From NCBI GenBank assembly GCA_014379965.1, contig JACMKU010000062.1, positions 19,878 to 83,877 of the forward strand: a DNA stretch of 64,000 nt, in the 5' to 3' direction. Source of the DNA: Chitinophagaceae bacterium. Lineage in GTDB: Bacteria > Bacteroidota > Bacteroidia > Chitinophagales > Chitinophagaceae. Under the pieces are notes generated by a model. That model ran no database searches. It worked only from the letters and a program-made list of their open reading frames with translations, and was not told where the DNA came from. The position numbers and the translations under genes were made by a program. Every line of letters begins with the position of its first letter. Position 1 is the stretch's first letter. This document shows positions 12,774-47,419 of the stretch, one piece after another.

Positions 12774-13379
12774 ATGATTGGGCAGGCTATTTTATTGCTT
12801 CGAAACGAGTTGCAATCTTATATTAAGAACCAGGATGCTTCTGTAAACGTCGTCATCGATAACATCGGTCTGCTCGAGACATCGAACGCCGATGGTCTCA
12901 CTAACAACGTGGTGATAACGGTTGTGAATATCGAGGAGGAAAGTACATTGAAGAACCAACCAGCACTCAGACGTCCCTCTTCGAATGTGGCTACTTATGT
13001 TAACCCTCCTGTTTGCCTCAACTTGTATGTGCTTTTCACTTGCAACTATTCAGGTCCGGATTACATTTTTGCATTGAAGCGCCTTGCGTACATCATTCAA
13101 TTTCTCCAAAGCAAAAATTCTTTTTCCTCATCCAGCTCGGTGGTCGGGGGTGGCCTGGACCTCGATAGCGAGGACACCTTAAATCTAAGATTCACGCTTG
13201 AATTATACACGCTAACGTTTGAGCAAATTAACCACCTCTGGGGATCACTGGGAGGAAGACAGATGCCCTTCGCCATGTACAAACTGAGGCTGGTAGCAAT
13301 CACTGAACGCGCCGTCTTGCGTGAAGTACCACTTATCGAAGAAATCGAAACTAATACCAGGGAATTATCAGCCATGTAG
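12774..13379 (+). CDS. DUF4255 (Pvc16/Afp16-like) tail terminator/cap protein
   Basis: 201 aa. The N-terminus MIGQAILLLRNELQSYI and the VVNIEEESTLKN segment match my recollection of the DUF4255 family. Its position at the head of an eCIS operon fits. Confidence 0.7.
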   Translation: MIGQAILLLRNELQSYIKNQDASVNVVIDNIGLLETSNADGLTNNVVITVVNIEEESTLKNQPALRRPSSNVATYVNPPVCLNLYVLFTCNYSGPDYIFALKRLAYIIQFLQSKNSFSSSSSVVGGGLDLDSEDTLNLRFTLELYTLTFEQINHLWGSLGGRQMPFAMYKLRLVAITERAVLREVPLIEEIETNTRELSAM

Positions 13380-13382
13380 CTT

Positions 13383-14714
13383 ATGCCGGTCATCTACAAA
13401 ATATTGTTCGAAGTAAAGCTGATGCATGAATTTTACTTTACCACAAAAGATGGCAATACGATATTTGAGAAAGCTACCCAGGCGGAGCGATTGGTTTTCC
13501 TGAAGGGGAAATATCAAAAGGGATCACCTTCGGTGGCTAACGACCTCGAATTCGATTTCCCCGAGTCGCTAAAGGCCGCTTATAGCAGCTACTGCCTGAA
13601 AATTCTCCCCTCATTTTCTGGCTTCAAGGTGGCGATCAAGGTTAATAAGAAGATACTCGCCGATGAAACGATAGCATACCAGCCGTTTGTTCCTCTGCCA
13701 GGTAATCTGGCGATAACGGTATTGATAACGAAAAAGAATGGCGACGTTGACAGCTACTCAAATTCCAGGATCAATACCTCGTTGCCAGCCTTGTATTATT
13801 TTTCAAACGACAAAGTGATCTCCGGCAACACCTTTCCATTCCTTACAAATGCAATATCGGAATTTAATTCAAACTACACTTATGAGCATGGAGAGCTCGT
13901 TGCGTTTGGGAATAATGATATACGCGGCTATTTCCAGAACTCAGCGGGCGATCAGTGGCAGGTATTTACGGGCGCAGGATTTGCCAATGAGAACGATCGC
14001 ATCTTGCTTCCCACTAAGTTTAATTATTCCTTCCCTGCAGAGAGCAATGTGAAGGATGTTGAGTTTATTTTGAAATCCCCAGGTGGCGGCGCTGTCAAAT
14101 CTATAAGGGCAAATGGCACCGACAGAATGGAAAAGATTCAGCTTGACTTCTCGGATAAAAAGGATTTGTTGTCACTTCCTGCTTCATCCCGGCCAACCGA
14201 CCGATTATTCACCCTTGAAGTTAATGGCGACAATTACATGAGGACGCATTTCATTTTTTTCAGCGATGTGCTTTACAATAGGGCAGTATGGGGAGTAACA
14301 AGCTTTGTTCTCAATCCCGCCAATCCAGACTTCAAGCTTTTTGCATCCGATGGTTACCTGGTAACTCGGAAAAGATTAAGTGGCGACGAAGATCCCCCGC
14401 TGTTTGAGATCCCAATAAAGTCAAGGTTTGCTTTCTGGCGGTATGCACATCAAAGGGGAGACCAGATCCTAATCAGTCTGGATCTCGCTGGTTTTCTGGT
14501 TGAGGAGGAAGTTGATCCCGGCGTTACAGTGAAGAGGCTGATAAGCGTTCGGCCGCGGGCGTTGTCAAGTGTTTATTTCAAGGTGCAGAATGAAAGCGGC
14601 ACAGACAGTAAATATTTGCCGAATCCAGTGAGTTATTCGATCTCGAGAGACAAGGCAGGCAGACCTTGTTTCGATATTATGGTACCCGAATCGGATTTGT
14701 TCCAGGTGATTTAA
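13383..14714 (+). CDS. Hypothetical eCIS-associated protein
   Basis: 443-aa ORF starting 3 nt after the DUF4255 stop and preceding the sheath gene. No recognisable motif. Confidence 0.55.
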   Translation: MPVIYKILFEVKLMHEFYFTTKDGNTIFEKATQAERLVFLKGKYQKGSPSVANDLEFDFPESLKAAYSSYCLKILPSFSGFKVAIKVNKKILADETIAYQPFVPLPGNLAITVLITKKNGDVDSYSNSRINTSLPALYYFSNDKVISGNTFPFLTNAISEFNSNYTYEHGELVAFGNNDIRGYFQNSAGDQWQVFTGAGFANENDRILLPTKFNYSFPAESNVKDVEFILKSPGGGAVKSIRANGTDRMEKIQLDFSDKKDLLSLPASSRPTDRLFTLEVNGDNYMRTHFIFFSDVLYNRAVWGVTSFVLNPANPDFKLFASDGYLVTRKRLSGDEDPPLFEIPIKSRFAFWRYAHQRGDQILISLDLAGFLVEEEVDPGVTVKRLISVRPRALSSVYFKVQNESGTDSKYLPNPVSYSISRDKAGRPCFDIMVPESDLFQVI

Positions 14715-14769: not shown

Positions 14770-16179
14770 ATGGCAGAATACAAAACCCCGGGAGTATATA
14801 TTGAGGAAATTCCCAAACTACCCCCATCAATTGCTTCCGTTGAAACCGCTATACCTGCTTTCATTGGTTATACGGAGAAAGCCCACCTGCGCGAACCCGA
14901 TGATCTTCGAAATGTCCCGAGAAGGATCAGTTCAATGTTGGAGTATGAGACGCTGTTTGGTTTTGCCGACCCAGAGAAAGGAATCGAGGTGATTTTCGAT
15001 AATTCTGGCCCGCGACTCGACGTAAAAGCCAGGGTGAATCCTGAACTCAGGTCAAAATATCTGATGTACTATTCCATGCAGATGTTCTTTATAAATGGTG
15101 GTGGTCCATGTTGGATAGTTTCCGTGGGCGATTATCCTACTACAGGAGGCCTCATCATGGATGCAGATCTGAAAAGGGGATTGGCGGAAGTAGAAAAGAT
15201 CAACGAAGTAACTCTGCTGCTCTTCCCCGATGCAATCAACCTGGATAATGGATTCAACTATTATTCGGTTTACGACGAAGCTATCGATCAGGCTCGTAAA
15301 CTCCAGGACAGATTTGTTATCATGGATGTGCACCATAATCCGGAGAACGGGACAGATTGGAAAGCAGACACAGATAATTTACGAAATGTCCTGTCAGGTA
15401 CAACCGATGACCTTAAATATGCGGCGGTTTATTTCCCAAGGATATTTACGGGGATAGATTTCTATGCACCGCTTGAAGACCAGGTGAAGATTTTAGGAAA
15501 AAGCATAGCCCTGCCGGAGACGATGTCCGAACTAAAGAGCACCAGCAACGCAAACTACTTCATGGCGAAGGCGGCTATTTCAAATATGGAGATGCTATTG
15601 CCGGCCTCCTCCTCCCTGGCTGGTATCTACGCACTCGTCGATGCTACACGGGGTGTTTGGAAGGCTCCCGCAAACGTGAATATCGACAATGCAATAAGGC
15701 CGGAGTTCCTCATCACACATGAACAACAAAAGGATCTTAATGTCGATGCTATGGCAGGCAAGTCCATCAACGTCATTCGGAGTTTTACGGGTCGCGGCCC
15801 GGCCATCGTTTGGGGAGCGCGCACACTTGCTGGCAATGATAACGAGTGGCGCTATATCCCCGTCCGCAGGTTCTTCAACATGGTAGAGGAAAGTACTAAG
15901 AACGCAACTGAGCAATTCGTTTTTGAACCGAATGACATCAACACCTGGGTAAGAGTGAAGTCTATGATTGCAAATTACCTTACCCAGCAATGGAAGGCAG
16001 GAGCGCTTCAAGGGGCGTCTACCAAAGAAGCATTTTTTGTTCACGTTGGGTTGGGCGAGACGATGACCTACCAGGATATTCTTGAAGGGCGTATGATCGT
16101 GGAGATCGGAATGGCAGTAGTAAGACCAGCCGAATTCATCATCCTCCGCTTCATGCATAAAATGCTGGGAGAATCCTGA
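14770..16179 (+). CDS. Contractile tail sheath protein (Afp2-4 / gp18-like)
   Basis: 469 aa. It has the hallmark N-terminus MAEYKTPGVYIEEI and a conserved C-terminal sheath domain (WKAPANVNI, VWGARTL). Confidence 0.92.
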   Translation: MAEYKTPGVYIEEIPKLPPSIASVETAIPAFIGYTEKAHLREPDDLRNVPRRISSMLEYETLFGFADPEKGIEVIFDNSGPRLDVKARVNPELRSKYLMYYSMQMFFINGGGPCWIVSVGDYPTTGGLIMDADLKRGLAEVEKINEVTLLLFPDAINLDNGFNYYSVYDEAIDQARKLQDRFVIMDVHHNPENGTDWKADTDNLRNVLSGTTDDLKYAAVYFPRIFTGIDFYAPLEDQVKILGKSIALPETMSELKSTSNANYFMAKAAISNMEMLLPASSSLAGIYALVDATRGVWKAPANVNIDNAIRPEFLITHEQQKDLNVDAMAGKSINVIRSFTGRGPAIVWGARTLAGNDNEWRYIPVRRFFNMVEESTKNATEQFVFEPNDINTWVRVKSMIANYLTQQWKAGALQGASTKEAFFVHVGLGETMTYQDILEGRMIVEIGMAVVRPAEFIILRFMHKMLGES

Positions 16180-16217: not shown

Positions 16218-17318
16218 ATGAGCACACACAATCAGACATCAAAAGGATCGAATCCCGAACCGGTGCCGGTGCCTCCTGAGTGTAAACAGGATGATACTAA
16301 CCCAACCCAGATCGTGATCAATAAGGAACGTAATAAATATTGCCTTGAATTGTATGAGGCACGAGGAGCTACCTCTCAACAGGAAGTAAAATTTGCCGGT
16401 GAAAATGAAATTTACAATGACAGGAAATGCTTGTTTAATAATACTGAGGAGAATTACCTGAGGTACCGCAATCTGGAGATTACGATCGGTACTGAAATGT
16501 TGACGACTTCTGAAACCATTAAAGGCAACGTTGACCAACTTAAGAAATGGAATTCTGATCTGAACGCGCTCCTTAAGAAACTAAGTAAGAGTGTCAAGGA
16601 TGCAAAAGAAAAATTTAAGGATCTCAAAGACGCAGGATGCAAGTTGGAATCCAGCATTCACGATCAATGCTTTACTGCGCAATGGAAGGCGTTGACAGGA
16701 AGGGAAAGCGAGAAATGTGATGCTACCGGTGAGCCGCATCCTGCCTGTAAAACGACCGCAGAAGATATTTCTGCTATGATCTGCCGTCCGAAGGGCCTGA
16801 TCCTCGATATCGACTCCATCACGACGGCGTCTGCCGATGTGGTGGGAATCCAGATTTTCTCCAATATCGACACATTGGAACCGCTGCATAAAGAACTGGA
16901 TACATACTCGAAGGATTTTGAGAAGCATGTTGCCGAAGTAATGAAAACCAGGGAAACAGATCTCAAAAAAATGCAGGATGATCTTGTAAAGTCTGTTAAA
17001 GACATTACGAAGGCTGCTGTCGACAGGAACAGTCTTCGAGGCAACTTCGAAGGATTGTATGATGCCGTGAGCTACATGTGCTGTCCTCCGTGTGTATGTG
17101 TAGGTCCAATTGATCCTTCAGACCCCGATTGTCACGACAACAACTACAGGAATAAGCAGGGCGGAACTACGCCAGCAAAGGATTGTTACAATGATTGCCC
17201 ATCACGCCTGAAGAAATGTGAGAAAGCAATCTGCGAGATCTGCACCGATGTGAAGGTTGCTTTCTGTTGCGATACTCCACCTGTGGGCGACCCAGGAATT
17301 CGAGGATGCTGTGATTAG
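16218..17318 (+). CDS. Cysteine-rich coiled-coil protein A (unknown function)
   Basis: 366 aa with about 22 Cys by my count, 14 of them in the last ~80 residues (YMCCPPCVCVGP...CEKAICEICTDVKVAFCCDTPPVGDPGIRGCCD). The central region is Lys/Glu-rich and helical. No signal peptide or TM segment. Confidence 0.7.
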   Translation: MSTHNQTSKGSNPEPVPVPPECKQDDTNPTQIVINKERNKYCLELYEARGATSQQEVKFAGENEIYNDRKCLFNNTEENYLRYRNLEITIGTEMLTTSETIKGNVDQLKKWNSDLNALLKKLSKSVKDAKEKFKDLKDAGCKLESSIHDQCFTAQWKALTGRESEKCDATGEPHPACKTTAEDISAMICRPKGLILDIDSITTASADVVGIQIFSNIDTLEPLHKELDTYSKDFEKHVAEVMKTRETDLKKMQDDLVKSVKDITKAAVDRNSLRGNFEGLYDAVSYMCCPPCVCVGPIDPSDPDCHDNNYRNKQGGTTPAKDCYNDCPSRLKKCEKAICEICTDVKVAFCCDTPPVGDPGIRGCCD

Positions 17319-17353
17319 ACGACACCATTATTAAAATTCTTAAAAAATTTCAT

Positions 17354-18484
17354 ATGCTTACGAAACATTGTTACAAGAATATTCCAGAAAAATGGAATGA
17401 GCACACCGACGATGAAACCAGGCGGCGGATCATCGATTGTTGCGGTGTACCAGATCCCAACGACCCGACCGGGGGTGACTGCTGCTACCGGGATTGGAAC
17501 CTTGAACTAAAAAACGTAAATCAGGACTATAAGGCAGCCATCGAGGAAGCAGAGTTGAGAAAGAGACAGCTCGTCTTTATTACCGACAGGCGAGATCGTT
17601 ATAATACCTGGGTAATTGAATTGAACAAGGCGGAAGAGAAGGCTAGATATATCTGCCAGCAGTTGGATGTCATTGCCACTCAGACACGTAAGATCTGGTA
17701 CAATAGCTGCAAAGCCGTTAAGGCCATCGAGATACTCTACTGCATGATCACCGATTTTTATTTCCAGGTAGACGACCTCCGGAAAAAGTATGACAACCTC
17801 ACTGCATGCGTTTCTAATAATCACGATCCTGCCATCGGTAAAGGAACAGGTATTCTAAAGTATGCTGACGATTATCTCGCGAAGTTGGAGATAGTTATTA
17901 AAACCCGCGACGACCTTGTTAAGCCTGTGTTAGATGCCATTCGTCTTGCTAATCTCATCCGGAATAGCATCTCTACAAAGAAATGCCCCGCTCCCAAGGA
18001 TGACAAAGGCAAAGGCTATGATCCATGCGAGGATGATGAACTCTGCCCGGATTATTGCGTAGAAGGCGGCGAATACTATGGGTTGAAGGCTGTAATCTGT
18101 GCATGGTATCGTGAATTCAATTGTGATCTTAAGTGTGAGCCTACTATCGATCCTAAATTACCTAAGGATCAGTGGAAGCTGAAATACAAGGAACGTGAAG
18201 ATGCCAGGATCAAACGCGAGGAAGAAAAAAAGAAATGCGACGAGAAACAGGATCCGCCTCCAGTGGATTGCGTTTGCGAACTGCGTCCGTCATTTTATTT
18301 CCCAGTTTGTAATGATGTATACAAGATGCAAATCGAAAGATGGTTGTACAACGACGAAAGCTCTATTAATACACTTCGCGAAAACCTATTGGCTAGTTTA
18401 AAGAAGAAAGAGGCGCTCCAGGCATGTAAGGATAGTCTTGCTAAAGCGGTGAAGGAAGTGGATCCAAAGGATAGATGCAAATAG
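17354..18484 (+). CDS. Cysteine-rich coiled-coil protein B (unknown function)
   Basis: 376 aa with about 22 Cys by my count. The N-terminus has DCCGVPDPNDPTGGDCCY, which mirrors the C-terminal CC-x12-CC of protein A. No signal peptide or TM segment. Confidence 0.7.
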   Translation: MLTKHCYKNIPEKWNEHTDDETRRRIIDCCGVPDPNDPTGGDCCYRDWNLELKNVNQDYKAAIEEAELRKRQLVFITDRRDRYNTWVIELNKAEEKARYICQQLDVIATQTRKIWYNSCKAVKAIEILYCMITDFYFQVDDLRKKYDNLTACVSNNHDPAIGKGTGILKYADDYLAKLEIVIKTRDDLVKPVLDAIRLANLIRNSISTKKCPAPKDDKGKGYDPCEDDELCPDYCVEGGEYYGLKAVICAWYREFNCDLKCEPTIDPKLPKDQWKLKYKEREDARIKREEEKKKCDEKQDPPPVDCVCELRPSFYFPVCNDVYKMQIERWLYNDESSINTLRENLLASLKKKEALQACKDSLAKAVKEVDPKDRCK

Positions 18485-19530: not shown

Positions 19531-19707
19531 ATGGCATTAGAAGTAAGAGAACTAATTATCAGGGCCACCGTGGTACAGGAGGGGATCGGCACAGGGATTA
19601 CTAATCCTTCGCCTGGAACGAATAACGATATATCCAACGAAGAGGAATTAATTACAACCTGCGTGGAAAAAATTCTTGAAATCTTAAAATCAAAGGATGG
19701 CAGGTAA
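19531..19707 (+). CDS. Small conserved eCIS protein (DUF5908-like), missing from the ORF track
   Basis: My translation gives a 58-aa ORF: MALEVRELIIRATVVQEGIGTGITNPSPGTNNDISNEEELITTCVEKILEILKSKDGR. The N-terminus resembles the DUF5908 pattern (M..E.KEL.I...V) I recall from Bacteroidota eCIS loci. It starts 10 nt after the tube gene and overlaps the next gene by 11 nt. Confidence 0.55.
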   Translation: MALEVRELIIRATVVQEGIGTGITNPSPGTNNDISNEEELITTCVEKILEILKSKDGR

Positions 19708-22482: not shown

Positions 22483-22908
22483 ATGGAACAAACTTTCAAT
22501 TCCTTTTTAGGTACGGGCTGGTCATTTCCTCCGGCATTCAACGCGAGTACTGGTGTGGTGGAAATGGTGAGCGAGGTGGAGGACATCAATCAAAGCCTCG
22601 ACATATTGCTTTCTACAAGTATAGGAGAACGCGTGATGCAGCCGGATTATGGCTGCAATTTGAACGATTATATGTTTGAAGGTCTGGGTAGCGATCTTAT
22701 TGGAATCATCAAGCACCACGTGGAGAATTCAATATTATATTATGAACCAAGAATCATTGCAGAGAAAGTAACTGTTACTACCGCGGACTCAACGGACCTG
22801 CTAGAAGGTAAGTTCGTGATCACTGTAGAATATCTTATACCGAAGACGAACTCCAGGTTCAACTATGTATATGATTACTACCTGAATGAGGCCACAGCCA
22901 GAATATAA
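22483..22908 (+). CDS. GPW/gp25 family baseplate wedge protein (Afp9-like)
   Basis: 141 aa with FLGTGWSFPP and LLSTSIGERVMQPDYGCNL, typical of the gp25 lysozyme-like fold family. Confidence 0.85.
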   Translation: MEQTFNSFLGTGWSFPPAFNASTGVVEMVSEVEDINQSLDILLSTSIGERVMQPDYGCNLNDYMFEGLGSDLIGIIKHHVENSILYYEPRIIAEKVTVTTADSTDLLEGKFVITVEYLIPKTNSRFNYVYDYYLNEATARI

Positions 22909-25900
22909 ACTAAGAGCTATTAATGTCATGTTCAATTGCGATTGTATTATTCATCCTTTTCAAAATGAACCGGGTACCAGCCAGAGGCAGCGTATCATGG
23001 ACGAGCTCTTGGGTGAAGCAGCTAAGATCGATGCTCGAACTCTCGCAGACCTGTTGGATTATTTTGTCAAGTTAGCCCCGCATATAAACTATTACGACAC
23101 AAAAATGGTAATGGGCGACTGGCGGCCATTTTTCAAAAATAGCATCCCCTTTACCCTTTCCTCCGTCATCAACTACCCAATCAAAGGAGCGGCTGCAAAT
23201 TTTAGTATTTATAACTCACTGTTTAATCGGAAGCCACTTGCAACTGGCTTACAGCTGAATGCGCATTTCCTGTATTATTATTTCATAAAAAGAATAAATC
23301 AATTGCAGGAGGTATTGGCAAAGAGTGAACTGCCAATGGAAGGCTTTTTGGACAATCTGATACGTGAGAAACTCAGGGCTCCTGTAGTCGAATTTATTTC
23401 TTACGTGAATGCCGCGGTACAAAGACATGGAGTTCGTAGAATTGATTTCAGCCCCCTTTATCAGAATGCGACATGGAATATCGGGTTGGATGAGCTTTAT
23501 GGTATCTACTCACCCACAGTTTTAGGTCTGCCTCAAACTTTCAAAAGCCTTCACGCTCTCAATGATAAGTTGAAATCGCTATTCCCTGTTTTTGAAGAAA
23601 GTATCAGATCACTGAGCCTGGAGGCGGAAAAGAATCTGAACCTGAGCCTCATTCACAGCAAAGAAGAACTGCAAAAGAAGCACGAACCACACCTGGCACT
23701 CCTGTTTGCGTTTCTTAACCTCTTCAGATATCTGCAAGACGATCTGAACGGGTATACACGTCGCCACCTTGATTTCTTTTACAAGGATATCCTCAAGCTA
23801 AAGCCCGGCGCTGCCACACCGGACAGGGCTTTCATTCTATTCGAAATTCAGAAGCAACTCAAGAAGCATATTCTCAATAAGGGTCTGTTGTTGAAAGGAG
23901 GTAAGGACGATAAGAAACAGGAAATACTATTCGCACTGGATGACGAGATTGCCGTAAACAAGACTGAGGTGGTAGACAAGAGGACTCTTTTTGTTAATAA
24001 CAGGCTGGCTCACGGAGCCACTTATGTGGAAGGCGTTTACATGGCACCAGACGCAACTAAAGCCGACGGAGTGAATAAGGATTTCCCTGGAGACATAGCG
24101 AATTTCAATACCGTTGGCAATAAGCTAAGTAAGCATGTAGACCCTGAGACCAAACTCATCAAGCCTTTTCCTAACGCGAGACTGGGATTTGTCCTTGGGT
24201 CTAACGTACTGTTCATGGGAGACGGTAGTACAAGAAACGTTGAGGTCACTCTTAAATGCAGATTGAACGAAGCTATATGTCAGCAGTTCGCCGCAGCGGG
24301 AATTAGGAAGCAAGATTGTTGCTCGGAAGGAGGTCAGAACCAGGGAGCGGCGAAAGACGAATTTGTTCCAGAATATTCCGCCGTAACATTTTTGAGTAGG
24401 ATTGAGAGTCTATTGAATAATACCTACTACTACCTGGACCAGGACATCTTAAGAGAAGCGATAAAGAAGGGGATCGACCAGGATCTTGTTCTGAGGTTGA
24501 AAGAACATTTTCTACTGGAGCCCAGCCCGAAATTTGATGGGCGAAAACCAAAAGACTATTGTAATTGCCCGGTGAAGAAAGATCGCTATGAAGGTGTCCT
24601 TAAGGAGGCCGACTACTATGCGGAGTTTGGCAACGAGGTTGAAACTTTAGCGCCGTTTATCAAGCCACGAAAGCTCTTGACCGTTTTGTTTAGCGGAGCG
24701 AAGGAGTGGATTGAGCCTGTAATCGGAAAGCGATCCACTGATCCGTTATTTACAAAAAACCTTTCGTTTGCCATTTCAAATGTCAATGCGAATAAGTTCC
24801 TGTTGACTATCAATGCTACCCTAACCCCCGAAATGCCTGCAGTAGGTTTTTACAACGCTCTTGCGTTAAAGGAGGAATTAGGAACGACGCTGCCACTCGC
24901 AAAATTTGAACTCGATGACAAGATCAAGTTCATGAACGTGGCGCTAAGGACCCTGGCGACGCACGACCTACCCGAAGAAGAATGCTGTGTGCAGTCAAAG
25001 GATTGCTGCCTGCTTATTGAAGAAGGAAAAGATATTCATAACATTTCTGCTTATCATTTTTTCAGGAATGTAATGTTGAATGAGACAGACCCAAACGCGA
25101 CTGTGATTAAGGTCGATGTGTGTGGTCTCAAACATGCTATTGTCCAGAATGATGACAGCGTAATGGATATCAATGGACCAATCGTTCCATTTGGCCCACG
25201 TCCCAAGATCGGGTCGAATTTTTATGTAGGTACAGAGGAAATATTCATGAAGAGATGGCGGGATATATATATTAACCTCAACTGGAAAGATCTTCCTCCC
25301 GGGGGGTTTAAAAGTTACTATGAGGCATATCAGACCAGGCTGGTAGGTTTACCTCCTTCTAATATAGTTGAAGACAATCAGTTTAAGATTGAACTTGCCA
25401 TATTGCAGGATGGGAACTGGATTCCGTGGACACATGGTGTGGTAGGTGATAATCTTCCCAATAAGAAGTACAACCTTTTTCAAACCTTCGTGAACCCTGG
25501 GATCTATTGCGTTAATACGCCCGTATTCCAGCACCAATTCGCGATCTCTCATGCGAATGATTTCAATAATCTCCCGTATCCTAGTGAAAAGATCATTTTC
25601 AAGAACATCAAAAAATTTGAAGTCTTAAGCCGGAATTGCTTCCTTAGAATCACATTAAGGTTCCAGGACTTTCAGCATACTATTTATCCATTTATCTTAG
25701 GCAGGCAGATGACGGCTCAAGGGAAACTTCCGCAGGATACAGTTAACGGCGCCGTTTACTACGCACCCGGCACCACAAGTCCTATGACATTCGACGCAAA
25801 TCAGATTAAGACACAAATAGAAGATGCCTTTAATCTTTCGGTAGAAGTGAAAAGAGAAGTAAGCGACCCTATTGGTGGGGATGGAATCCAGGAGAATGTT

Positions 25901-27496
25901 GGAATTCTGGGTAATATTCCAGCAGGCAACGCCAATCGTATTCGGACTATTCTTCGCCCTCCAATTATATTGATCCCGGGAGAGAATCTGGTTAACGAAT
26001 CCATTGCGTTGCATGCGACACTAGATGCTGTAAATAAGAAGATCGATGACATTAAGAAATTTGCAGCTGTAATTCCTCCGGAACCATGGACACCAACGAT
26101 TAATTTGTTTGAAATAGGGTATGTAGCGGTTGCAACGATTCGGGAGATAGATATGATACACCTGTATCCATTCGCAGGCACATACAAACAGGAAGAGATA
26201 GAGCTACAGCCGCCGCTCTTTCCTACATTCTGTGATGAAGGCAATTTATTCCTTGGATTAAATGACCTCGTGCCTGGTAACAACCTGAATATCCTATTCC
26301 AGTTGGCCGAGGCCACTTCAGATTCTGAGTCGGTTAAGGCAGAAGTTTCGTGGTACTACCTTGACAGCAATACATGGAAGACCCTGCGGACCGGGTTCGA
26401 GGTCCTGGATGATGGTTCGCTTGACCTCACCAGGTCGGGAATAATAAAGTTTGCGCTACCATCTAATATGACGAAGGACAACACGGTAATGCCGGGAAAT
26501 TTACATTGGATAAAGGCTTCCGTGAATAGAAATAGCCGGTCTGTGAGCGAGACGACCGGTATACATCCCCAGGCCATGCTGGCGATGTTTTCTCATACTC
26601 CTGGCAATGATACATTGAGACTTGATAAACCTTTACCGAAAGGGACCGTCGGGAAACTAAACACCGCCGATGCATCCGTGAAGACAGTACAACAGCCATA
26701 CGAGACTTTTGGGGGACGTTTACCCGAAAGCGAAGGACCTTTCTATATACGAGTCAGTGAATTATTGCGACACAAAGGGAGGGCTATCCAACCCTGGGAC
26801 TATGAACGGCTGACGCTTGAACAATTTCCCGAATTATATAAGGTAAAATGCATCAGTCACAGTTTCGCTTTGGACGCGAATAAATACAAGAATGATTTCC
26901 CATACGCACCGGGCTATGTTGTGTTGGCTGTGATTCCGGATTTATACAAATTGAAGGCCGGGCTTTCTTTTGAACCAAAGGCGCCAGTGTCTGTCCTCGA
27001 GAAAGTGGAGGCATTCATCCGCAAGCGCACATCACCCTTCGTACGGTTCAAGGCACGAAATCCTATCTATGAAAAGGTGAATTTCTGTATTCGCGTACAG
27101 TTGATAAAGGGGAAGGATGAAAATTACTACAAGGAAAAACTAAAAGAAGATTTACGACATTTTTTGGCACCGTGGGCAGTCGGCATTTTTTCAAAACTTA
27201 GTTTCGGCGAATGTGTATATAGGTCAGAAATAATACGGTTCCTCGAAACCACACGCTACGTTGATTTCATCACGGACCTGCGGATGGGAAAGGACGGCGA
27301 ACTCCCCGGACCCAACATTCACAGGGTTTGTCCTGACACACCTCGTTCTATTCTAATTGCCGGAGATATCGAGGTCTGCATCGAAAAGCCTGAATGCATA
27401 GACTGGAACGATGAGTTTGAGGGATGTGAGGGTAAAAAGATTGGAGAGTGCGATAACAAATCCGAACTGTTCATTGATTATTGTAAACCAAAATAG
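22886..27496 (+). CDS. Large baseplate J-like protein (Afp11-like)
   Basis: 1536 aa. The C-terminal third carries the baseplate-J signature (LLRHKGRAIQPWDYERLTLEQFPELYKVKC). The start is uncertain: 22886 overlaps gp25 by 23 nt, and an alternative ATG lies at 22928. The C-terminus is Cys-rich. Confidence 0.75.
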   Translation: MRPQPEYKLRAINVMFNCDCIIHPFQNEPGTSQRQRIMDELLGEAAKIDARTLADLLDYFVKLAPHINYYDTKMVMGDWRPFFKNSIPFTLSSVINYPIKGAAANFSIYNSLFNRKPLATGLQLNAHFLYYYFIKRINQLQEVLAKSELPMEGFLDNLIREKLRAPVVEFISYVNAAVQRHGVRRIDFSPLYQNATWNIGLDELYGIYSPTVLGLPQTFKSLHALNDKLKSLFPVFEESIRSLSLEAEKNLNLSLIHSKEELQKKHEPHLALLFAFLNLFRYLQDDLNGYTRRHLDFFYKDILKLKPGAATPDRAFILFEIQKQLKKHILNKGLLLKGGKDDKKQEILFALDDEIAVNKTEVVDKRTLFVNNRLAHGATYVEGVYMAPDATKADGVNKDFPGDIANFNTVGNKLSKHVDPETKLIKPFPNARLGFVLGSNVLFMGDGSTRNVEVTLKCRLNEAICQQFAAAGIRKQDCCSEGGQNQGAAKDEFVPEYSAVTFLSRIESLLNNTYYYLDQDILREAIKKGIDQDLVLRLKEHFLLEPSPKFDGRKPKDYCNCPVKKDRYEGVLKEADYYAEFGNEVETLAPFIKPRKLLTVLFSGAKEWIEPVIGKRSTDPLFTKNLSFAISNVNANKFLLTINATLTPEMPAVGFYNALALKEELGTTLPLAKFELDDKIKFMNVALRTLATHDLPEEECCVQSKDCCLLIEEGKDIHNISAYHFFRNVMLNETDPNATVIKVDVCGLKHAIVQNDDSVMDINGPIVPFGPRPKIGSNFYVGTEEIFMKRWRDIYINLNWKDLPPGGFKSYYEAYQTRLVGLPPSNIVEDNQFKIELAILQDGNWIPWTHGVVGDNLPNKKYNLFQTFVNPGIYCVNTPVFQHQFAISHANDFNNLPYPSEKIIFKNIKKFEVLSRNCFLRITLRFQDFQHTIYPFILGRQMTAQGKLPQDTVNGAVYYAPGTTSPMTFDANQIKTQIEDAFNLSVEVKREVSDPIGGDGIQENVGILGNIPAGNANRIRTILRPPIILIPGENLVNESIALHATLDAVNKKIDDIKKFAAVIPPEPWTPTINLFEIGYVAVATIREIDMIHLYPFAGTYKQEEIELQPPLFPTFCDEGNLFLGLNDLVPGNNLNILFQLAEATSDSESVKAEVSWYYLDSNTWKTLRTGFEVLDDGSLDLTRSGIIKFALPSNMTKDNTVMPGNLHWIKASVNRNSRSVSETTGIHPQAMLAMFSHTPGNDTLRLDKPLPKGTVGKLNTADASVKTVQQPYETFGGRLPESEGPFYIRVSELLRHKGRAIQPWDYERLTLEQFPELYKVKCISHSFALDANKYKNDFPYAPGYVVLAVIPDLYKLKAGLSFEPKAPVSVLEKVEAFIRKRTSPFVRFKARNPIYEKVNFCIRVQLIKGKDENYYKEKLKEDLRHFLAPWAVGIFSKLSFGECVYRSEIIRFLETTRYVDFITDLRMGKDGELPGPNIHRVCPDTPRSILIAGDIEVCIEKPECIDWNDEFEGCEGKKIGECDNKSELFIDYCKPK

Positions 27497-27507
27497 AATA
27501 AGGCGGA

Positions 27508-30500
27508 ATGGCAGGTGAACTCGAAAATAAACTGATAAGCAAGACTAATACAGGGTTTCCCGACTATCTTGACTTCAACCGACTCAGGACCGAAGCGATT
27601 CACCATATCGGCAAGTTATCGGGGAAAGTGTGGACGGATCACAATGTACACGACCCTGGTATCACCATACTGGAGACACTCATCTACGCAATCCTCGACC
27701 TTGGATATCGTACTAACCTGCCGCCAGCCGACCTGTTTGCAAGTGACCCTGAAAACAAGGATCCCGATAACAATTTCTTTCTCCCTTCTCGGATCCTTGC
27801 CAACAATCCTCTGACGATAACTGACTTTCGTAAACTATTGGTGGATATCAGGGGAGTAAAGAACGCCTGGTTGGAAGTCGATGAGGAGATGGCAGTGGAT
27901 TTTTGCGATGATGAGATAAAGCAACGTGACAGGTACGAAAAGCAACAGAAAGACAAACGCCAACCTTGCGAATGCGATAGAGTAAACGGGCTGTATCACG
28001 TTTATATACAATTGGAAGACTCAATCGATCCTGCCTCAACAGTAGGAGATGCAATAATCTCGAAGATCAAACGGGTATTGTTCGCCCACAGGAATCTGTG
28101 TGAAGATTACCTCGACATTAAAGTATTGTGCAGACTGGAGATCGGTTTATGTGCCGATATAGAACTGGAGCCCGGTATTGACGTAGATGAAGCATACAGG
28201 GTGATCACCGCGTCGCTGGGAGAATTCTTCTCGCCTTCTCCACGGTTTTATACTTTCCAGGAACTCCTGGATAAAGGGAGAACGGTGGATGAGATATATG
28301 CAGGAAGACCGTTTGATATTACGGAGAGTCATGGGTTTGTGGACACACAGGAATTTGAGGAAATGAGGCTTAGGAGGATGATTCACCTTTCCGATGTATA
28401 CAACCTGTTGTTTTCATTGAAAGGGGTTAGCAGTATCCGTAACCTCGGGTGGATTACCTGCTGCGAGGATAAAGATAGAAAGAGCAATTCTAGCTGGCAG
28501 CTGCATCTTCCAGAGCATCATATACCCATATTTTCTGAAGTATGTTCAGGTTTCCGATTTTATCAAACCGGGATACCAGTAAAAAGGACTATCACAAATG
28601 GGCTGGCAAATAACCTCGGGCTTCGTCTCAGGCCAAAAGGAGTTTATAAGCTTCCCTCTCCCTATCTGGAACCCGAGTATCCCCGAGGCACATACAGAAA
28701 AGACCTGGCAGATTACTTTTCAATCCAGAATGATTTTCCAAAAGTATATGGCATAAGTGAAGGGGGGTTGGCTAACGATGTTTCTGTCAAACGTAAGTCG
28801 CAAGCAAGGCAGCTCCAGGGGTTTCTCCTTTTCTTTGATCAACTTCTTGCCAATTATCTCGTTCAGCTAAAAAATATCCGATCTCTTTTTTCTTTGACAT
28901 CATCTTCGGATAAAAAATCGAACCATACCTATTTTACTAACCAGCTTAAAGACGTTCCATACTTCAAAGAGCTTGTCCGTTTTTCAACAGAGGAGGGAAT
29001 TACAGGAAAAGAAGGTAACATTCTTGCGTATCCCACGCCGCGAAAAAATCTTCAAACCGTTATTGAAAGCGACAAATTGAAATTCCATGGGGTCGGCAAA
29101 AATTGTGATGATCCTTGTAATGATGACTTTCCGGAATACAGGTACTGCTTTGCTACCGAGCGCGACCAGGGCGCAGTTCAATTGCGGCATGATCTGCAGT
29201 ACGGGGAGTTTGAGCCCGTGATTGTTTCTAACACGGAGAATTGCTATTTCTTCTACCTGTTTACGTCATCAATGGACTTTGCAGTCATCAGCAGGAATTT
29301 CTATGGAAGTGAGCAGGAGGCAAAAAATGCGGCCACCTCTTTCAGATATATAGGTTCATCTGAACGTAATATCAGGCGATACGTGGTAAAGGGAAAAAGA
29401 CATCGGGACGAACGCTTCTCCTTCTCTATTGAGCTCAACCTGGCGACCTATGCCTCATACCTGCAGGAGTTGGTAGAAGACGACGAGCTATATCGGTCAA
29501 GACGGCAGAACTTCCTGGATCACCTGTTAGCCAGGTTCGCTGAGAAGTTTGCGATCTATGGTTTATTGAGTTCCGGTCATTTCAGTGCCAGCGACATCAG
29601 CACTCGAAAGATAAAGGCCGTTGAAAAATTCTTATCGTCATATGACGATATCAGCAGCAATCGTGGGAAGGCCTATGATTATACAAAGGATATTTCTAAA
29701 ATCAAAAACACTTCGGGGTTTGAGAAAAGATTCAAAGCGCTTGCTGGGATCGATAATTGGGATCGTCACTATCTCTGCAATTTCGTGGTTGAAGCTGCGG
29801 ATCAGGAATACAGGATCCTGATTGAACTGTTCAATGAAGCTTTTGAGGTCCCCGACAAACTATTCAGTAAAGCCGGCGCTTTGGCGTCGCTTCAAGCTGC
29901 CTATTCAAAGTTGTTGGACAAACCCGTCTTTGAGACAGAGGCAAAAAGGGATGGATCTGGATGGCAGATATTCTTCCGGGATGGAGTAAACAATAAATAC
30001 GTGCTAAGGCGCGAAGCCGTTAGCATGGACGAAGCCTCGGCAATCAGGAAAAAACTAGATGCGTTCTATAACCTCAAACCCGATAGGCAGGAAAATGTGC
30101 ACGTTGGCACAGAGATATTCAAGGTGGTGGTGGCAGATCATGCAGGAACGCCGTTGGCGGAGAGCAAGGAGAAGTTTGACAATAGAGAGAAAGCGATAGC
30201 ATTTTCCGATCGCATTGTACCGAAGGTCTCCGGACATCTGAAAGACGAGAAGGAATTTACCTGGTTTCAGAAGAAGAACGCACCCGAAAAGCTGGTTCTA
30301 CGATCGAAGCATAGTGGTCGGTCGGAATTCATAGATGTAACAGGGTTTAATTACAAAGAAGTGGATGTACATCACCTCAAGACTGTGAAGAAGAGGTTCT
30401 CTATGATTAACCGGGAGGCTACCATCCAATTCGATTCTCTGATTAATCACGATACTTCAAAGCATGCTAAGGAAGAGTTTCAACAACTTCTTCTCCTGTT

Positions 30501-33500
30501 GCACGATGAGGATAACTATAAAGTTGAAAAAGACCTCGATGAAAAGGTTTACAAGTTATATGTCAGTGACGGGACAAAGAAGAGAGCAGTGTTCCTCGAC
30601 ACTTTCCAGGGGGAGGCAGAAGGACTCGCTAAAGCTGTTGAGCTTTTTTCAGGTGTACGATCCCAAACCTACCGGACAACCATTTCCGATCCTATAGCGG
30701 ACACCTGGGAATTTATCTTCAAAGCCACCGACCTGGAAGGAAATGAATTGAAGTTCAAGAGCGACGCTTCGTTTAAAAACGAGGAGAAGGCCTGGGTTGC
30801 AGCTAGAGAATTTCACAGGCAGATCGAATTCACGAATGTGAAAAGCACGAAGGAGGGGATGCGGATAGAATTAAATAAGAAAGCTGGAGGAATGCAAGTC
30901 GTTGCATCTTTAGGCGATCTTGATGAAGAGAAGAAGGCGGCCTTGCAGAGAGAACTCGAGACGAGGATAAAGACTGTTGGGGCATTGAAAGAGGTGGATA
31001 AGGAATCGCTGGAAGGCAGGCTCGAGCAGTTCCGCGTGAATAAGAACGAGGAGTATATATTTAAACTTGTAGATAAGAACAACCTGCGCGCGTTAGTGAC
31101 GAGGTCAGCCTGGAAAAAGTTTAATGATGACCCGATTTTGCTGAAAGCGGAGTTGGTCAAACTCGCGGAGAATGGATTTAACTATATCGATATTTACCTG
31201 GCAGGCGAGATATTCACTGAACGAAAGGAGCCGGCGAGTAAGGCAAGGCGATATCATTACCAGGTTAAATGCACGAACCGTTTTTATCAAGCCGGTCCAT
31301 TAGCAGGGAAAGAATTGATCCTGTTTGAAAGCATAATGGGATACCAGGATAGGGAAGAAGCACAAAAGGGTTTTGAGAAAGACCTTCATCTATTGTTGCA
31401 AAAGGCAATGGATCCCGCAAACTACGGCCTTGATGAAGTGATCAGCACAGAAATAGAACTCGATTATGTGTTGGATAGCTGCAATACCCGAAAGAGTATT
31501 GTCTTCATTCCAAAAGAGACGATGGACCATTTTGGTGGCTATGAGGTTCACCGTGGCATCATCCCTTTGGTGAAAAGCTATCCTATCAGGCTGATTGGGA
31601 AGGACAGGTACATTTTCGTGGCGGCCAATATCGATGAAGCGAAGAGTGAGACGCAGGTGTATTGGAGAAGCACAAAAAGCTTTATCGATTCGACAGAGGC
31701 AATGCACGAGTTTCAATTCTTCCTGGTGCTGATAAAATTTAAAGGAAACTATTACCTGGACAAGTCACCTGGCGCCATTCGGCCACACCTATATCTCAGG
31801 GAGGTGTTAGCAGTAAGCGCACATGGATATCCCACGGCGGCCGCAGCATGGGGCACTGAAGGGATCTGGAAGTTCATTTGCGTTGCACAAGCCAAAAATG
31901 GATTTCATAACTATTGGAATTGGAAGCAGTGTAATTATAGCTTCTATACGGCTTGCGGAAACACTGGACTAGTGCATCCGTGTTCATATGAATCACCAAA
32001 GAGGCGGGATGCGGTGATGGCCCGTTTAATTGCGGGATCGGGATTCGATTTTACATCTCTACTGAGTATCGAGGATGCTCAGCACATCCTGCTACACAAA
32101 TATGACAAGACGGTGGGTGCAGCAATTTCCCGTATCAATATCGTTGGCCCACCGCTATTTGACGGTAATGGCAAGATCTCATATAACAACCCGGATTTCT
32201 GTAGATGGATGCTCCAACTTATTGAATGGGCAGGCGACGATACAAGATATTCGCCCAAGGTAAAAGGTTGGCAGCTCGTAATTAAATACACTGATCCAAA
32301 CGATAAGAAAGTGAAGGATCATGTATTGGCAGAATCGCTGGAGGATGATATTTCAAAACAACAATGGAAGATGCAACTTCTGTCAGCTTTGTGTTATTTC
32401 CCAATAAACAAAGTAGACGATCGCTTTTATGTCGAGTTTCGCCTTCCGGGCGCAGATGATTGCTTCAGTGTCGGGTATTCCCAGGAAAAAGATGTGTGCG
32501 AGGATTGTGAGGTTTCCTGCTATAGTTCCTGGAAGAGCGAATGTTGTTTCAGCACTTGTGTTGAGGCGTGGAGATTTTATTATTATGCACTTGCGCTGAT
32601 ACGAGTTCGCGAGAACTACAAACCGGTTTATGATTGCGAATGTGGATCCTATCGCGTCGAGCTACATCCTCAGTTGAACACAGAAGGAAAAAGAATGCTA
32701 GCCCAATCTCTTAAGGAGGTCAATGATAGCAGTAAGAGAATGCTGGAGTTGGCCAGTCGTTCATTTGGAGGCGTGCGACAACAGGAAACAGGTTCAGCAC
32801 CGAGAGGTATCAAGTGTCTTAGCGAGATAGTCGCCATTAACCCTCAACTATACACAAACGAAAGAATGGCTTGTGAAGCGGTTGACCGTGCGAAGAGTTT
32901 AATTAATAGTGAAGGTCTTCACCTGGTGGAACACATCTTGCTTCGACCGCGGTGTAAGGATAAAGATGGGAAATATCTTGATTGTAAATGTGAAGGCGAT
33001 CCGCTGCCTGGTCCGTGTATTCCAGATGAGGATAAGGTCTGCCATTTTAAATGGTCACCAGGAGCAGATGCAGAGCGGTGCGAATTGGAGAAGACAATTT
33101 GTTTTACTCCCGGATGCGACCCTTATTCCTTTATTGCTACGGTGGCATTGCCTGCATGGCCCGCCCGTTTTCGCACAAAGGCGGGTAGAGAGATTGTTGA
33201 GAAGGCGTTACGTCGTGAGGCGCCGGCGCACATCCTGTTACGAATACTCTGGCTCACCCCGCGTGATTATTGCTGCTTCGAATATTATTTCAGGCAATGG
33301 AGCCAATGGTTGGCACTTAAGGATATGAGCGCTCCCTACTCTAATTGTCGTTTCCTCGAATTGTTGTTTAAGAAAAAATTTCCCGAACTGCCGGAGTGTA
33401 CTGAGTGTATCCCTTGTGAGCCGCTGGCCACAGTGGAGCCTAATTGCTTCGAGAATGATCGAAAACCAAGCAAGGACTGCGACGTGATGAACATTGAGGC

Positions 33501-34161
33501 AACAGTGAGCAGGCAGGTGAACGAACTGTTTTGCTGGTCACGAGATTCCTGGCCAGATGCGGAAGAAGAAAAATACAGGGCCTGTGGTGAAATGGAGGAG
33601 CGAGTTTTCGAAAGATCCTTGATGCCGGAACAGAAGAAAGACAAAGACGAGGCGGTTAAGATGGATGCAAACAGGAAAGGAACAAAGGAATATGCGAAGG
33701 AAAAGGCAAGCGTTGTGAGAGGCCGCGCCAAACGTTACGCAGATCATGTAGGGATGATATTGGCAGCGTATGGACAAAACCATGTGGCGAGGGAAGCTGG
33801 AACATTCCTTACCAATACAGAAGCTAAACCCGAGGTATACAAGGAGTTGGTCCATAAAATACTTGATGAGGGACCAGAAACGAGCCCTGACCACTTACAT
33901 GACGTGGCGAAGGAGGAGCTCATCAAGAATATAACCTGGAAATACCTGGACCTTGCCTGCTTCAGCAACAAGGAGACGGTGGAGGAACAGGATAAGGAAC
34001 GGGAGAAGATTGTACAGTTGGCGGAATTCTTTCGGTCCTTGCGAGAGCGTAAAGTGGATATGCAGAGGGTATTTGACGGCTGGGACGAGAAGCAGGTTGC
34101 CAGGTACGAGTCTCTACCAGGGGGAAATAGTGTTCGCAATATTTTAACCGGGGATCAATGA
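27508..34161 (+). CDS. Giant baseplate-associated protein (Afp12-like N-terminus plus long extension)
   Basis: 2217 aa. The N-terminal motif WTDHNVHDPGITILETLIYAILDLGYR is one I associate with eCIS Afp12-type baseplate proteins. The remaining ~1900 aa are unassigned and include Cys-dense blocks near the C-terminus. Confidence 0.6.
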   Translation: MAGELENKLISKTNTGFPDYLDFNRLRTEAIHHIGKLSGKVWTDHNVHDPGITILETLIYAILDLGYRTNLPPADLFASDPENKDPDNNFFLPSRILANNPLTITDFRKLLVDIRGVKNAWLEVDEEMAVDFCDDEIKQRDRYEKQQKDKRQPCECDRVNGLYHVYIQLEDSIDPASTVGDAIISKIKRVLFAHRNLCEDYLDIKVLCRLEIGLCADIELEPGIDVDEAYRVITASLGEFFSPSPRFYTFQELLDKGRTVDEIYAGRPFDITESHGFVDTQEFEEMRLRRMIHLSDVYNLLFSLKGVSSIRNLGWITCCEDKDRKSNSSWQLHLPEHHIPIFSEVCSGFRFYQTGIPVKRTITNGLANNLGLRLRPKGVYKLPSPYLEPEYPRGTYRKDLADYFSIQNDFPKVYGISEGGLANDVSVKRKSQARQLQGFLLFFDQLLANYLVQLKNIRSLFSLTSSSDKKSNHTYFTNQLKDVPYFKELVRFSTEEGITGKEGNILAYPTPRKNLQTVIESDKLKFHGVGKNCDDPCNDDFPEYRYCFATERDQGAVQLRHDLQYGEFEPVIVSNTENCYFFYLFTSSMDFAVISRNFYGSEQEAKNAATSFRYIGSSERNIRRYVVKGKRHRDERFSFSIELNLATYASYLQELVEDDELYRSRRQNFLDHLLARFAEKFAIYGLLSSGHFSASDISTRKIKAVEKFLSSYDDISSNRGKAYDYTKDISKIKNTSGFEKRFKALAGIDNWDRHYLCNFVVEAADQEYRILIELFNEAFEVPDKLFSKAGALASLQAAYSKLLDKPVFETEAKRDGSGWQIFFRDGVNNKYVLRREAVSMDEASAIRKKLDAFYNLKPDRQENVHVGTEIFKVVVADHAGTPLAESKEKFDNREKAIAFSDRIVPKVSGHLKDEKEFTWFQKKNAPEKLVLRSKHSGRSEFIDVTGFNYKEVDVHHLKTVKKRFSMINREATIQFDSLINHDTSKHAKEEFQQLLLLLHDEDNYKVEKDLDEKVYKLYVSDGTKKRAVFLDTFQGEAEGLAKAVELFSGVRSQTYRTTISDPIADTWEFIFKATDLEGNELKFKSDASFKNEEKAWVAAREFHRQIEFTNVKSTKEGMRIELNKKAGGMQVVASLGDLDEEKKAALQRELETRIKTVGALKEVDKESLEGRLEQFRVNKNEEYIFKLVDKNNLRALVTRSAWKKFNDDPILLKAELVKLAENGFNYIDIYLAGEIFTERKEPASKARRYHYQVKCTNRFYQAGPLAGKELILFESIMGYQDREEAQKGFEKDLHLLLQKAMDPANYGLDEVISTEIELDYVLDSCNTRKSIVFIPKETMDHFGGYEVHRGIIPLVKSYPIRLIGKDRYIFVAANIDEAKSETQVYWRSTKSFIDSTEAMHEFQFFLVLIKFKGNYYLDKSPGAIRPHLYLREVLAVSAHGYPTAAAAWGTEGIWKFICVAQAKNGFHNYWNWKQCNYSFYTACGNTGLVHPCSYESPKRRDAVMARLIAGSGFDFTSLLSIEDAQHILLHKYDKTVGAAISRINIVGPPLFDGNGKISYNNPDFCRWMLQLIEWAGDDTRYSPKVKGWQLVIKYTDPNDKKVKDHVLAESLEDDISKQQWKMQLLSALCYFPINKVDDRFYVEFRLPGADDCFSVGYSQEKDVCEDCEVSCYSSWKSECCFSTCVEAWRFYYYALALIRVRENYKPVYDCECGSYRVELHPQLNTEGKRMLAQSLKEVNDSSKRMLELASRSFGGVRQQETGSAPRGIKCLSEIVAINPQLYTNERMACEAVDRAKSLINSEGLHLVEHILLRPRCKDKDGKYLDCKCEGDPLPGPCIPDEDKVCHFKWSPGADAERCELEKTICFTPGCDPYSFIATVALPAWPARFRTKAGREIVEKALRREAPAHILLRILWLTPRDYCCFEYYFRQWSQWLALKDMSAPYSNCRFLELLFKKKFPELPECTECIPCEPLATVEPNCFENDRKPSKDCDVMNIEATVSRQVNELFCWSRDSWPDAEEEKYRACGEMEERVFERSLMPEQKKDKDEAVKMDANRKGTKEYAKEKASVVRGRAKRYADHVGMILAAYGQNHVAREAGTFLTNTEAKPEVYKELVHKILDEGPETSPDHLHDVAKEELIKNITWKYLDLACFSNKETVEEQDKEREKIVQLAEFFRSLRERKVDMQRVFDGWDEKQVARYESLPGGNSVRNILTGDQ

Positions 34162-34167
34162 TAGAGT

Positions 34168-47416: not shown

Positions 47417-47419
47417 TGT

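Follow-up and report, generated by a model that had tools for sequence, protein, structure and literature searches.

What is the role of two extremely cysteine-rich proteins encoded between the sheath and the tube genes of a contractile injection system (CIS)? This question is raised by a stretch of 64,000 nucleotides (nt) from a Chitinophagaceae metagenome-assembled genome (MAG; GenBank assembly GCA_014379965.1, contig JACMKU010000062.1, positions 19,878 to 83,877; hereafter the window), which carries the genes for protein A (16218..17318, + strand; 366 amino acids (aa); NCBI H7Y42_04095) and protein B (17354..18484, + strand; 376 aa; NCBI H7Y42_04100), separated by a gap of 35 nt on the same strand. 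Both are real genes, since each has many homologues (88 clusters for A and 75 for B at E ≤ 1e-36, nearly all unnamed and from Bacteroidota) and since N-termini and start positions are conserved in both families. Rechecking the window reproduced what an initial annotation, made from the letters alone, had reported of them: their coordinates and lengths, 22 cysteines in each (6.0% of A, 5.85% of B), the clusters CPPCVCV and CEKAICEIC in A and CPDYC, CDLKC and CVCE in B, and their position between a sheath gene (PF17482/PF04984) and two gp19-type tube genes. Both proteins are hydrophilic and acidic (pI 5.3 for A and 6.1 for B), and, as also stated there, neither contains a signal peptide or a segment resembling a transmembrane helix, the maximal 19-residue Kyte-Doolittle mean being 1.23 in A and 1.14 in B.

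The distribution of the two genes was determined by a profile scan with the B alignment of one genome per GTDB species, which yielded 72 loci from Chitinophagaceae, Cytophagales, Pontibacter, Sphingobacteriales and Ca. Opimibacter, several of them from isolates. Wherever a locus provided enough sequence, the genes followed the order cap, p443 (a 443-aa protein), sheath, A, B, tube, tube, CIS_tube, VgrG, PAAR and gp25. The arrangement sheath-A-B-tube-tube-DUF5908-CIS_tube-VgrG-PAAR-gp25 was found in the 72 GTDB species as well as in six distant loci and in six metagenome loci with both genes complete. The core order sheath-A-B-tube was kept in 77/77 related loci of the Chitinophagales, Cytophagales, Sphingobacteriales and Saprospirales. 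Among the GTDB loci, identity to the window proteins was 28-69% for A and 27-62% for B, compared with 56-89% for the sheath and 64-99% for the first tube protein (tube1), showing that A and B evolve faster than the core proteins. A wider HMMER scan with the B profile returned 157 clusters at 50% identity, which form a continuum down to E values of about 1e-5, and the genomic context, where inspected, was always a CIS operon. All six distant B relatives that were looked up sit between a sheath and a tube gene, and the gene upstream of B matched the A profile in the five distant loci tested (E 1e-15 to 7e-39). Named B relatives belong to Chitinophaga spp., Saprospirales and Haliscomenobacter, and carriers of the pair include cultured strains of Chitinophaga, Agriterribacter, Hanamia, Puia and Pontibacter. 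With a divergent A profile, no additional relatives outside the family were recovered, and scans of viral contigs with two distant B relatives gave no matches.

To obtain a sample whose ascertainment is free of A and B, metagenome contigs were searched with the sheath alignment. In the near clade, with a sheath at least 54-56% and a tube1 protein at least 67% identical to those of the window, all eight evaluable loci contain A, and B is present wherever enough sequence follows. In contrast, the sheath gene is directly followed by the tube gene, without A and B, in about 50 loci of neighbouring clades. A and B are therefore a discrete, clade-defining insertion and not a general CIS component, and we conclude with good confidence that the pair is specific to, and obligatory in, one large Bacteroidota CIS clade. 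The co-occurrence check proposed in the initial annotation thus had a clear outcome, as orthologous pairs are strictly tied to this CIS lineage in 77/77 loci.

The cysteine content of the two proteins proved to be a property of both families. In 66 orthologous pairs, A contains on average 20.4 cysteines (range 11-25) and B 19.8 (range 13-30), corresponding to 5.9% of the residues in both cases. In the related loci, cysteine accounts for 0.48% of the cap protein, 0.39% of p443, 0.40% of the sheath, 0.02% of tube1 and tube2, 0.87% of CIS_tube, 0.29% of VgrG, 0.9% of gp25 and 1.5% of the Afp11-like protein. The level that had been called very unusual for A and B is thus set against 0.02-0.9% in the core proteins of the 66 loci, and their cysteine density is far beyond chance. 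Within the window, open reading frames (ORFs) of at least 150 aa that resemble real genes contain 0-3.6% cysteine. An antisense ORF within the sheath gene (15595-16158, - strand), almost certainly a non-coding shadow ORF, reaches 6.4%, so the complementary strand of this GC-skewed region can contain cysteine-rich frames by chance. Among the particle proteins, the Afp12-like protein (27508-34161, + strand) contains 52 cysteines, 36 of them in residues 1458-2026 of its C-terminal third (6.3%), including three CC doublets, and the Afp11-like protein (22886-27496, + strand) carries a CC doublet at residue 478 and a CC-x5-CC motif at 700-708, of which C707 and C708 are kept in 41-43 of 45 orthologues. 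Since these Afp11/12-like proteins are cysteine-rich and the sheath, tube and cap proteins are not, cysteine richness marks A, B and the outer baseplate and not the sheath-tube core. Distant A/B pairs contain 2.4-6.5% cysteine, and the family is older than its extreme cysteine enrichment.

Seven cysteines of B are invariant in all 66 orthologues (C29, C30, C43, C44, C101, C130 and C152), while nine were invariant in an alignment of 18 divergent A sequences (C22, C42, C151, C288, C292, C294, C334, C339 and C342). Protein A has a cysteine-rich C-terminal region (residues 288-366) of the form CCPxCxC ... CxxxxCxxC ... FCC. In its knuckles C289-P-x-C292 and C339-x-x-C342, conservation is complete or almost so, with an intervening linker of 5 to 63 residues; such a CPxC/CxxC combination with a variable linker would correspond to a zinc-ribbon-like pattern. 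Only three cysteines of the knuckle region are kept in distant A homologues.

The initial annotation had further pointed to a CC-x12-CC motif shared by both sides of the A/B junction. This is true of the window, where A ends with FCCDTPPVGDPGIRGCCD (17265..17315, + strand), in which C350/351 and C364/365 are separated by 12 residues, and where B contains, after 27 residues, DCCGVPDPNDPTGGDCCY (17438..17488, + strand), in which C29/30 and C43/44 are spaced in the same way. The symmetry did not extend to the families. The B motif, which follows a conserved N-terminus (MLTKHxY) and reads CC-loop-CC[YF]xxW, is kept without exception in 66/66 orthologues, its spacer measuring 11-18 residues (12 in 48/66), whereas the A motif is present in only 2/66; FCC...C was seen in 21 A orthologues, a single FC in 24 and none of these in 9. 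A recent DNA duplication as the origin of both motifs was rejected, as the two regions are only about 48% identical. A compensation between the terminal CC of A and additional cysteines in the B loop appeared suggestive in the three closest loci and proved inconsistent family-wide.

We conclude with good confidence from these comparisons and from library searches that A and B represent two novel protein families without a described member. No family was found for A, B or ten of their distant relatives in Pfam, NCBIfam or PHROG, where matches were limited to coiled-coil noise, and PDB profile searches with A and B gave nothing below E 0.2. Foldseek searches with AlphaFold2 (AF2) models of A and B against the PDB, and with B also against BFVD, returned generic antiparallel coiled coils such as SMC proteins, chemoreceptors and the TcA shell (E ≥ 1.7e-3), and thus no known family unrelated to CIS, which was the outcome that the initial annotation had wanted to see excluded. 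Its statement that no eCIS (extracellular CIS), type VI secretion system (T6SS) or phage-tail component of this kind has been described was likewise upheld by these databases. Proteins resembling A and B were not mentioned in the literature searched, which covered eCIS surveys, AlgoCIS, tail fibres, T6SSiv and ixotrophy, and rhapidosomes. The labels "Gas vesicle protein", "YafQ" and "YukE" attached to some homologues (JGI/NCBI) were treated as spurious annotations of low-complexity or helical sequence.

The AF2 models agree with the long helical regions noticed earlier, predicting for both A and B long bundles of antiparallel alpha helices with cysteine-rich loops. For B (mean predicted local distance difference test score (pLDDT) 83, predicted template modelling score (pTM) 0.62), a 113-residue helix (43-155), a turn at about 156-166 and a second helix (167-206) form a hairpin, which is followed by a cysteine-rich insert (207-243), short helices and a 48-residue C-terminal helix (322-369); the CC loop at 29-42 has a low pLDDT. 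The model of A (mean pLDDT 71, pTM 0.38) comprises helices 29-148, 180-213 and 217-288, a disordered N-terminus of approximately 28 residues and a poorly modelled, cysteine-rich C-terminal stretch of 80 residues. Profile comparison of A with B by hhalign gave a probability of 0.9% with small alignments, and of 29% (E 6e-4 over A179-251/B120-191) with widened families. The two proteins may therefore be very distant paralogues, which is not established.

The most direct indication of how A and B work together came from scoring the presence or absence of cysteine at every variable column of both proteins in the 66 pairs. The cysteines at A146 and B170 were both present in 34 pairs and both absent in 32, with no discordant pair. 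On a tree of the sheath and tube proteins, five parsimony changes were reconstructed at each position, and all five coincided. A hold-out of 11 further pairs from metagenomes and distant loci, some of them only 23-27% identical to known B proteins, showed the same behavior (6 both, 5 neither, 0 discordant), giving a total of 40 both, 37 neither and 0 discordant in 77 pairs. As a control, the binary residue characters of the two proteins were compared in all 427 x 395 combinations (about 169,000), and just six perfect correlations were found. Two of these six are Cys-Cys pairs, of 192 possible ones. The second, A351/B225, couples the second cysteine of the FCC of A to the presence of the cysteine-rich insert of B. 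Since the most divergent members have the A146/B170 pair, it is ancestral and was repeatedly co-lost, and the window proteins are among those lacking it (S146, Y170).

Because the cysteines at A146 and B170 are kept or lost together in 77/77 pairs, A and B very probably form a heteromer joined via cysteines, either by a disulfide or through a shared thiolate site. An additional link between the invariant residues A151 and B152 is possible. The heterodimer docking through paired CC loops that had been proposed in the initial annotation is supported as far as the heteromer is concerned; the loops themselves have no support in this role, since the A loop exists in only 2/66 orthologues and the coupled cysteines lie elsewhere (A146-B170, A351-B225). 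Within B, C115 and C207 are perfectly coupled and are separated from the predicted hairpin turn by 46 residues each, an equidistance that independently supports the AF2 hairpin and suggests that B115-B207 is a cross-helix staple. The pairings A42-B130 and A71-B101, considered on the basis of helix spacing, were dropped because they had no support from co-variation.

Taken together, we tentatively favor, at slightly less than an even chance, the interpretation that A and B are a clade-specific two-protein module forming a thiol-cross-linked accessory structure of the particle in this CIS, which is related to AlgoCIS, the thylakoid-anchored CIS (tCIS) and T6SSiv. According to this model, A and B would assemble into a heteromeric helical rod of roughly 15-17 nm, stapled by intra-B and A-B cysteine pairs and probably containing one zinc-type site formed by the invariant CPxC and CxxC knuckles of A. 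The thiols would be free or metal-bound in the reducing cytoplasm of the producer and would lock into disulfides upon exposure to an oxidizing environment. The outcome would be a rigid, covalently braced structure on the outside of the particle, such as a brace, a connector or a fiber-like element, sited near the similarly cysteine-rich outer baseplate proteins and not part of the cysteine-free sheath-tube core. A precedent is provided by Agrobacterium phage Milano, whose contractile tail is made in the reducing cytoplasm and is disulfide-cross-linked in the free particle, with some disulfides having to be reduced before contraction (PMC10811340). While the cysteines of Milano are located in its sheath, tube and baseplate proteins, those considered here are found in A, B and the outer baseplate, and the sheath and tube are almost free of cysteine. 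A more far-reaching version, which we regard as doubtful, is that the rod is redox-switched, i.e., reduced or metal-bound and inert in the cytoplasm and oxidized on release, and then braces or arms the particle, blocks premature contraction or arrays particles. If true, it would be a maturation or locking device on separate proteins, which has been described for no contractile injection system.

Several observations weigh against such an oxidized external structure, and some of them favor the main rival, namely that A and B are cytoplasmic zinc- or Fe-S-binding assembly or regulatory factors outside the finished particle, such as a scaffold, a chaperone or a redox/metal sensor. The total of cysteines in A and B is even in only 30/66 pairs, so not all of them can be engaged in disulfides internal to the A/B unit. 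The invariant CPxC/CxxC knuckles of A and the CC...CC motif of B resemble metal sites, and the CxxC-type knuckles of A fit a metal binding that would work in the cytoplasm. PDB profile searches revealed no A/B homologue among the solved AlgoCIS or tCIS structures (PMC8894135), and the location of A and B in the particle is a prediction. None of the other components (cap, p443, sheath, tubes, CIS_tube, VgrG, PAAR, gp25 and Afp11-like) showed perfect cysteine co-variation with A or B (maximal r 0.68-0.92), and the sheath and tube proteins contain no clade-specific docking insertion, their indels being 1-4 residues long. Furthermore, A was modelled with low confidence (pTM 0.38), and distant members with 2.4-3.2% cysteine indicate that the conserved function does not need the extreme cysteine content. 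The extracellular mode of action is itself an assumption, because the same CIS group includes the membrane-anchored T6SSiv machines, among them those of Saprospiraceae (bioRxiv 10.1101/2024.01.29.577165); a similar anchoring in the lineage studied here would undercut the step of oxidation after release.

The place of A and B between the sheath and tube genes would also suit a cytoplasmic role in the co-assembly of these proteins, and a DnaJ-type zinc-finger protein is added at the operon start in some loci. However, this zinc-finger gene is found in only about 10/65 loci, and no general need for such factors exists in assembly, since sister clades build the same sheath-tube core without A and B. 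Moreover, the pairwise appearance and disappearance of helix-borne cysteines, both between A and B and on the two arms of the B hairpin, would be expected of disulfides rather than of four-ligand metal sites. For these reasons we consider a purely cytoplasmic function unlikely, while still taking it seriously. A binary cargo or effector pair in the tube lumen or on the spike, comparable to XaxAB/YaxAB or to AhlB/SmhA-type helical toxins, appears less probable still. Toxins of these types are likewise encoded by adjacent genes for proteins of about 350-400 aa that work as heteromers of elongated antiparallel helical bundles, and A and B match this in gene arrangement (about 350-375 aa) and predicted fold, evolve faster than the core proteins and, in the case of A, begin with a disordered N-terminus of approximately 28 residues that resembles known cargo signals. 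Weak Foldseek matches to AhlB (E 0.06-0.09, TM 0.2-0.3) and to the helical shells of the Tc-toxin TcA, and a PDB profile match to SmhA (E 0.5), point in the same direction, but none of them is significant and they reflect generic coiled coils. In addition, the hydrophobic membrane-inserting head or tongue of such toxins was not found in A or B, which have the low hydropathy maxima given above. To our knowledge, XaxAB/ClyA-type toxins are neither cysteine-rich nor encoded in tail operons. A and B also lack a match to eCIS_core/DUF4157, which is present in both evident cargo proteins of the locus (2746 and 463 aa), and in 77/77 loci both occur, always as single copies, at a fixed place in the structural block. 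The cargo genes of eCIS usually vary and lie close to the ATPase gene. Cgo1/2 of AlgoCIS are a case of such cargo (PMC8894135). It is this fixed place in the structural block, the clade-wide presence and the lack of both eCIS_core and a membrane-active segment that lead us to prefer an accessory structure over cargo. The possibility of A and B being unrelated hitch-hikers inserted into the operon, or spurious ORFs, without a role in the injection system is effectively refuted. The pair is absent from sister CIS clades and the operon tolerates a foreign insertion at this site, as seen from a type IX secretion system (T9SS) protease gene between B and tube1 in one locus (L010), but its position and pairing are kept in 77/77 loci of four orders down to 23-27% identity, cysteine positions and N-termini are conserved, and about 157 clusters of B relatives at 50% identity exist, all context-read ones being located in CIS operons.

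A and B thus represent a widespread CIS add-on with unusual chemistry, set apart from the core proteins by a cysteine excess put at tenfold or more and apparently undescribed in the literature searched. Lineage-specific add-ons such as cap adaptors, cages, anchors, antennae and fibers largely determine the biology of this CIS group, whose members are mined and re-engineered as protein-delivery devices. If A and B are located in the particle, the current structural models of this group miss part of it in an entire clade, and their cysteine network could explain the stability, targeting or firing control of the particle in soil. With carriers that can be cultured, the A146-B170 link predicted here, and perhaps one between A151 and B152, can be tested directly.

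The pair is embedded in a complete CIS gene set (12219-49225, + strand), which belongs to the Afp/PVC/AlgoCIS type by gene content, as sheath, tube, spike, PAAR, gp25, cap, tape measure and ATPase genes lie in one cluster. Pfam matches were counted above the curated cut-offs. All genes of the cluster named below are on the + strand. It starts with a small zinc-finger protein, followed by the Pvc16_N cap protein (12774..13379), which is of the length class of AlgoCIS Alg16A (PMC8894135), and by p443 at the cap-adaptor position (13383..14714), which has no family match and was placed by synteny. The 469-aa sheath protein (14770..16179; PF17482/PF04984) matches those of AlgoCIS, tCIS, PVC and Afp in phmmer searches, its closest solved relatives being Alg2 and All3325. 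Downstream of A and B lie the two gp19-type tube genes (18521-18979 and 19002-19520), neither of which encodes a cysteine, and, all assigned by Pfam, the DUF5908 plug (19531-19707), CIS_tube (19697-20410), the VgrG spike (20410-22176), PAAR (22187-22477) and gp25 (22483-22908). The Afp11-like protein (1536 aa, 25 cysteines), the Afp12-like protein (2217 aa, 52 cysteines) and the tape measure protein CIS_TMP follow (22886..35712). The structural genes are succeeded by a cargo and maintenance block (35752..49225) with the 2746-aa eCIS_core toxin, a SUKH immunity protein, a ParA-like ATPase, a DUF4440/cupin protein, the second, 463-aa eCIS_core protein and an Afp15-type AAA ATPase. No plus-strand terminator was detected between the cap and CIS_tube genes and no Rfam family within the structural block. 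No tail fiber gene of the Afp13/Alg19 type was recognized anywhere in the cluster, the Afp12-like gene being directly followed by that of the tape measure protein (34161-34168). By gene position, A and B do not correspond to such a fiber, their genes not being adjacent to the Afp12-like gene, and library scans gave no match to a fiber family.

Among characterized systems, the locus is most similar to AlgoCIS of Algoriphagus machipongonensis, a clade Ib eCIS (PDB 7ADZ/7AEB; PMC8894135), whose Alg2 is the closest solved sheath (E 2.8e-140). Both share a short Pvc16_N cap with a second cap-side gene, two tube genes, a DUF5908 plug, a LysM-type CIS_tube protein, very large Afp11/12-like baseplate proteins, a tape measure protein, eCIS_core/DUF4157 cargo and an AAA ATPase. 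In contrast to the locus described here, AlgoCIS has a sheath of 692 aa with extra domains and an Ig-like fiber gene (alg19), and no A/B-like chain is found among the PDB entries or named as an AlgoCIS component. The sheath also matches All3325 of the Anabaena tCIS (PDB 7B5H/7B5I; E 8e-137), which belongs to the same CIS group. In this group, which comprises tCIS and the T6SSiv of Amoebophilus and Aureispira, lineage-specific add-ons set the site and mode of deployment (bioRxiv 10.1101/2024.01.29.577165), and B relatives occur in Saprospirales, the order containing Aureispira. No A/B homologue was identified in the tCIS and T6SSiv systems, whose genomes were outside the searches made. Whereas the add-ons of tCIS and T6SSiv are baseplate extensions, trans-envelope complexes and antennae, the one found here is a gene pair between sheath and tube.

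Further observations were made at the borders of the operon and in related loci. The first operon gene (12219-12659, + strand) encodes a 146-aa coiled-coil protein ending in CEACWGDNPDCDHCSGQG, which contains two DnaJ-type CxxCxGxG zinc-finger knuckles and gives a weak Pfam match to CIAPIN1; such a gene lies directly upstream of the cap gene in about 10/65 related loci only. Upstream of the operon, a divergently oriented gene for a GerE/LuxR-type regulator (11209-11787, - strand) was identified, and a GerE gene occupies the same place in two distant loci (L001 and L002). The giant cargo protein (35752-43992, + strand) carries five CxxC pairs about 21 residues apart (107/110 to 211/214) before its eCIS_core region as well as colicin/pyocin DNase and Tox-SHH nuclease domains. 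Its gene is followed by the SUKH-family immunity gene (44002-44439, + strand), and the genes for a ParA/MinD-type ATPase and a DUF4440+cupin protein (44465-46007, + strand) lie between the latter and the second eCIS_core gene. Just past the AAA ATPase gene that ends the cluster, a defense-type STAND protein with a SMEK domain and a NACHT NTPase is encoded (51240-54608, + strand). In L010, a Chitinophagales MAG, the insertion between B and tube1 is 3.3 kb long (11319-14318) and consists of a 147-aa ORF and the gene for the T9SS-sorted, thermolysin-like M4 protease. On the chromosome of Puia sp. P3 (L055, 6096-8891), a 931-aa ORF joins the p443-like gene to the sheath gene, which reflects either a real fusion or an assembly error, and a metagenome locus of a sister clade without A and B (L094) shows a tandem sheath-tube-sheath-tube arrangement.

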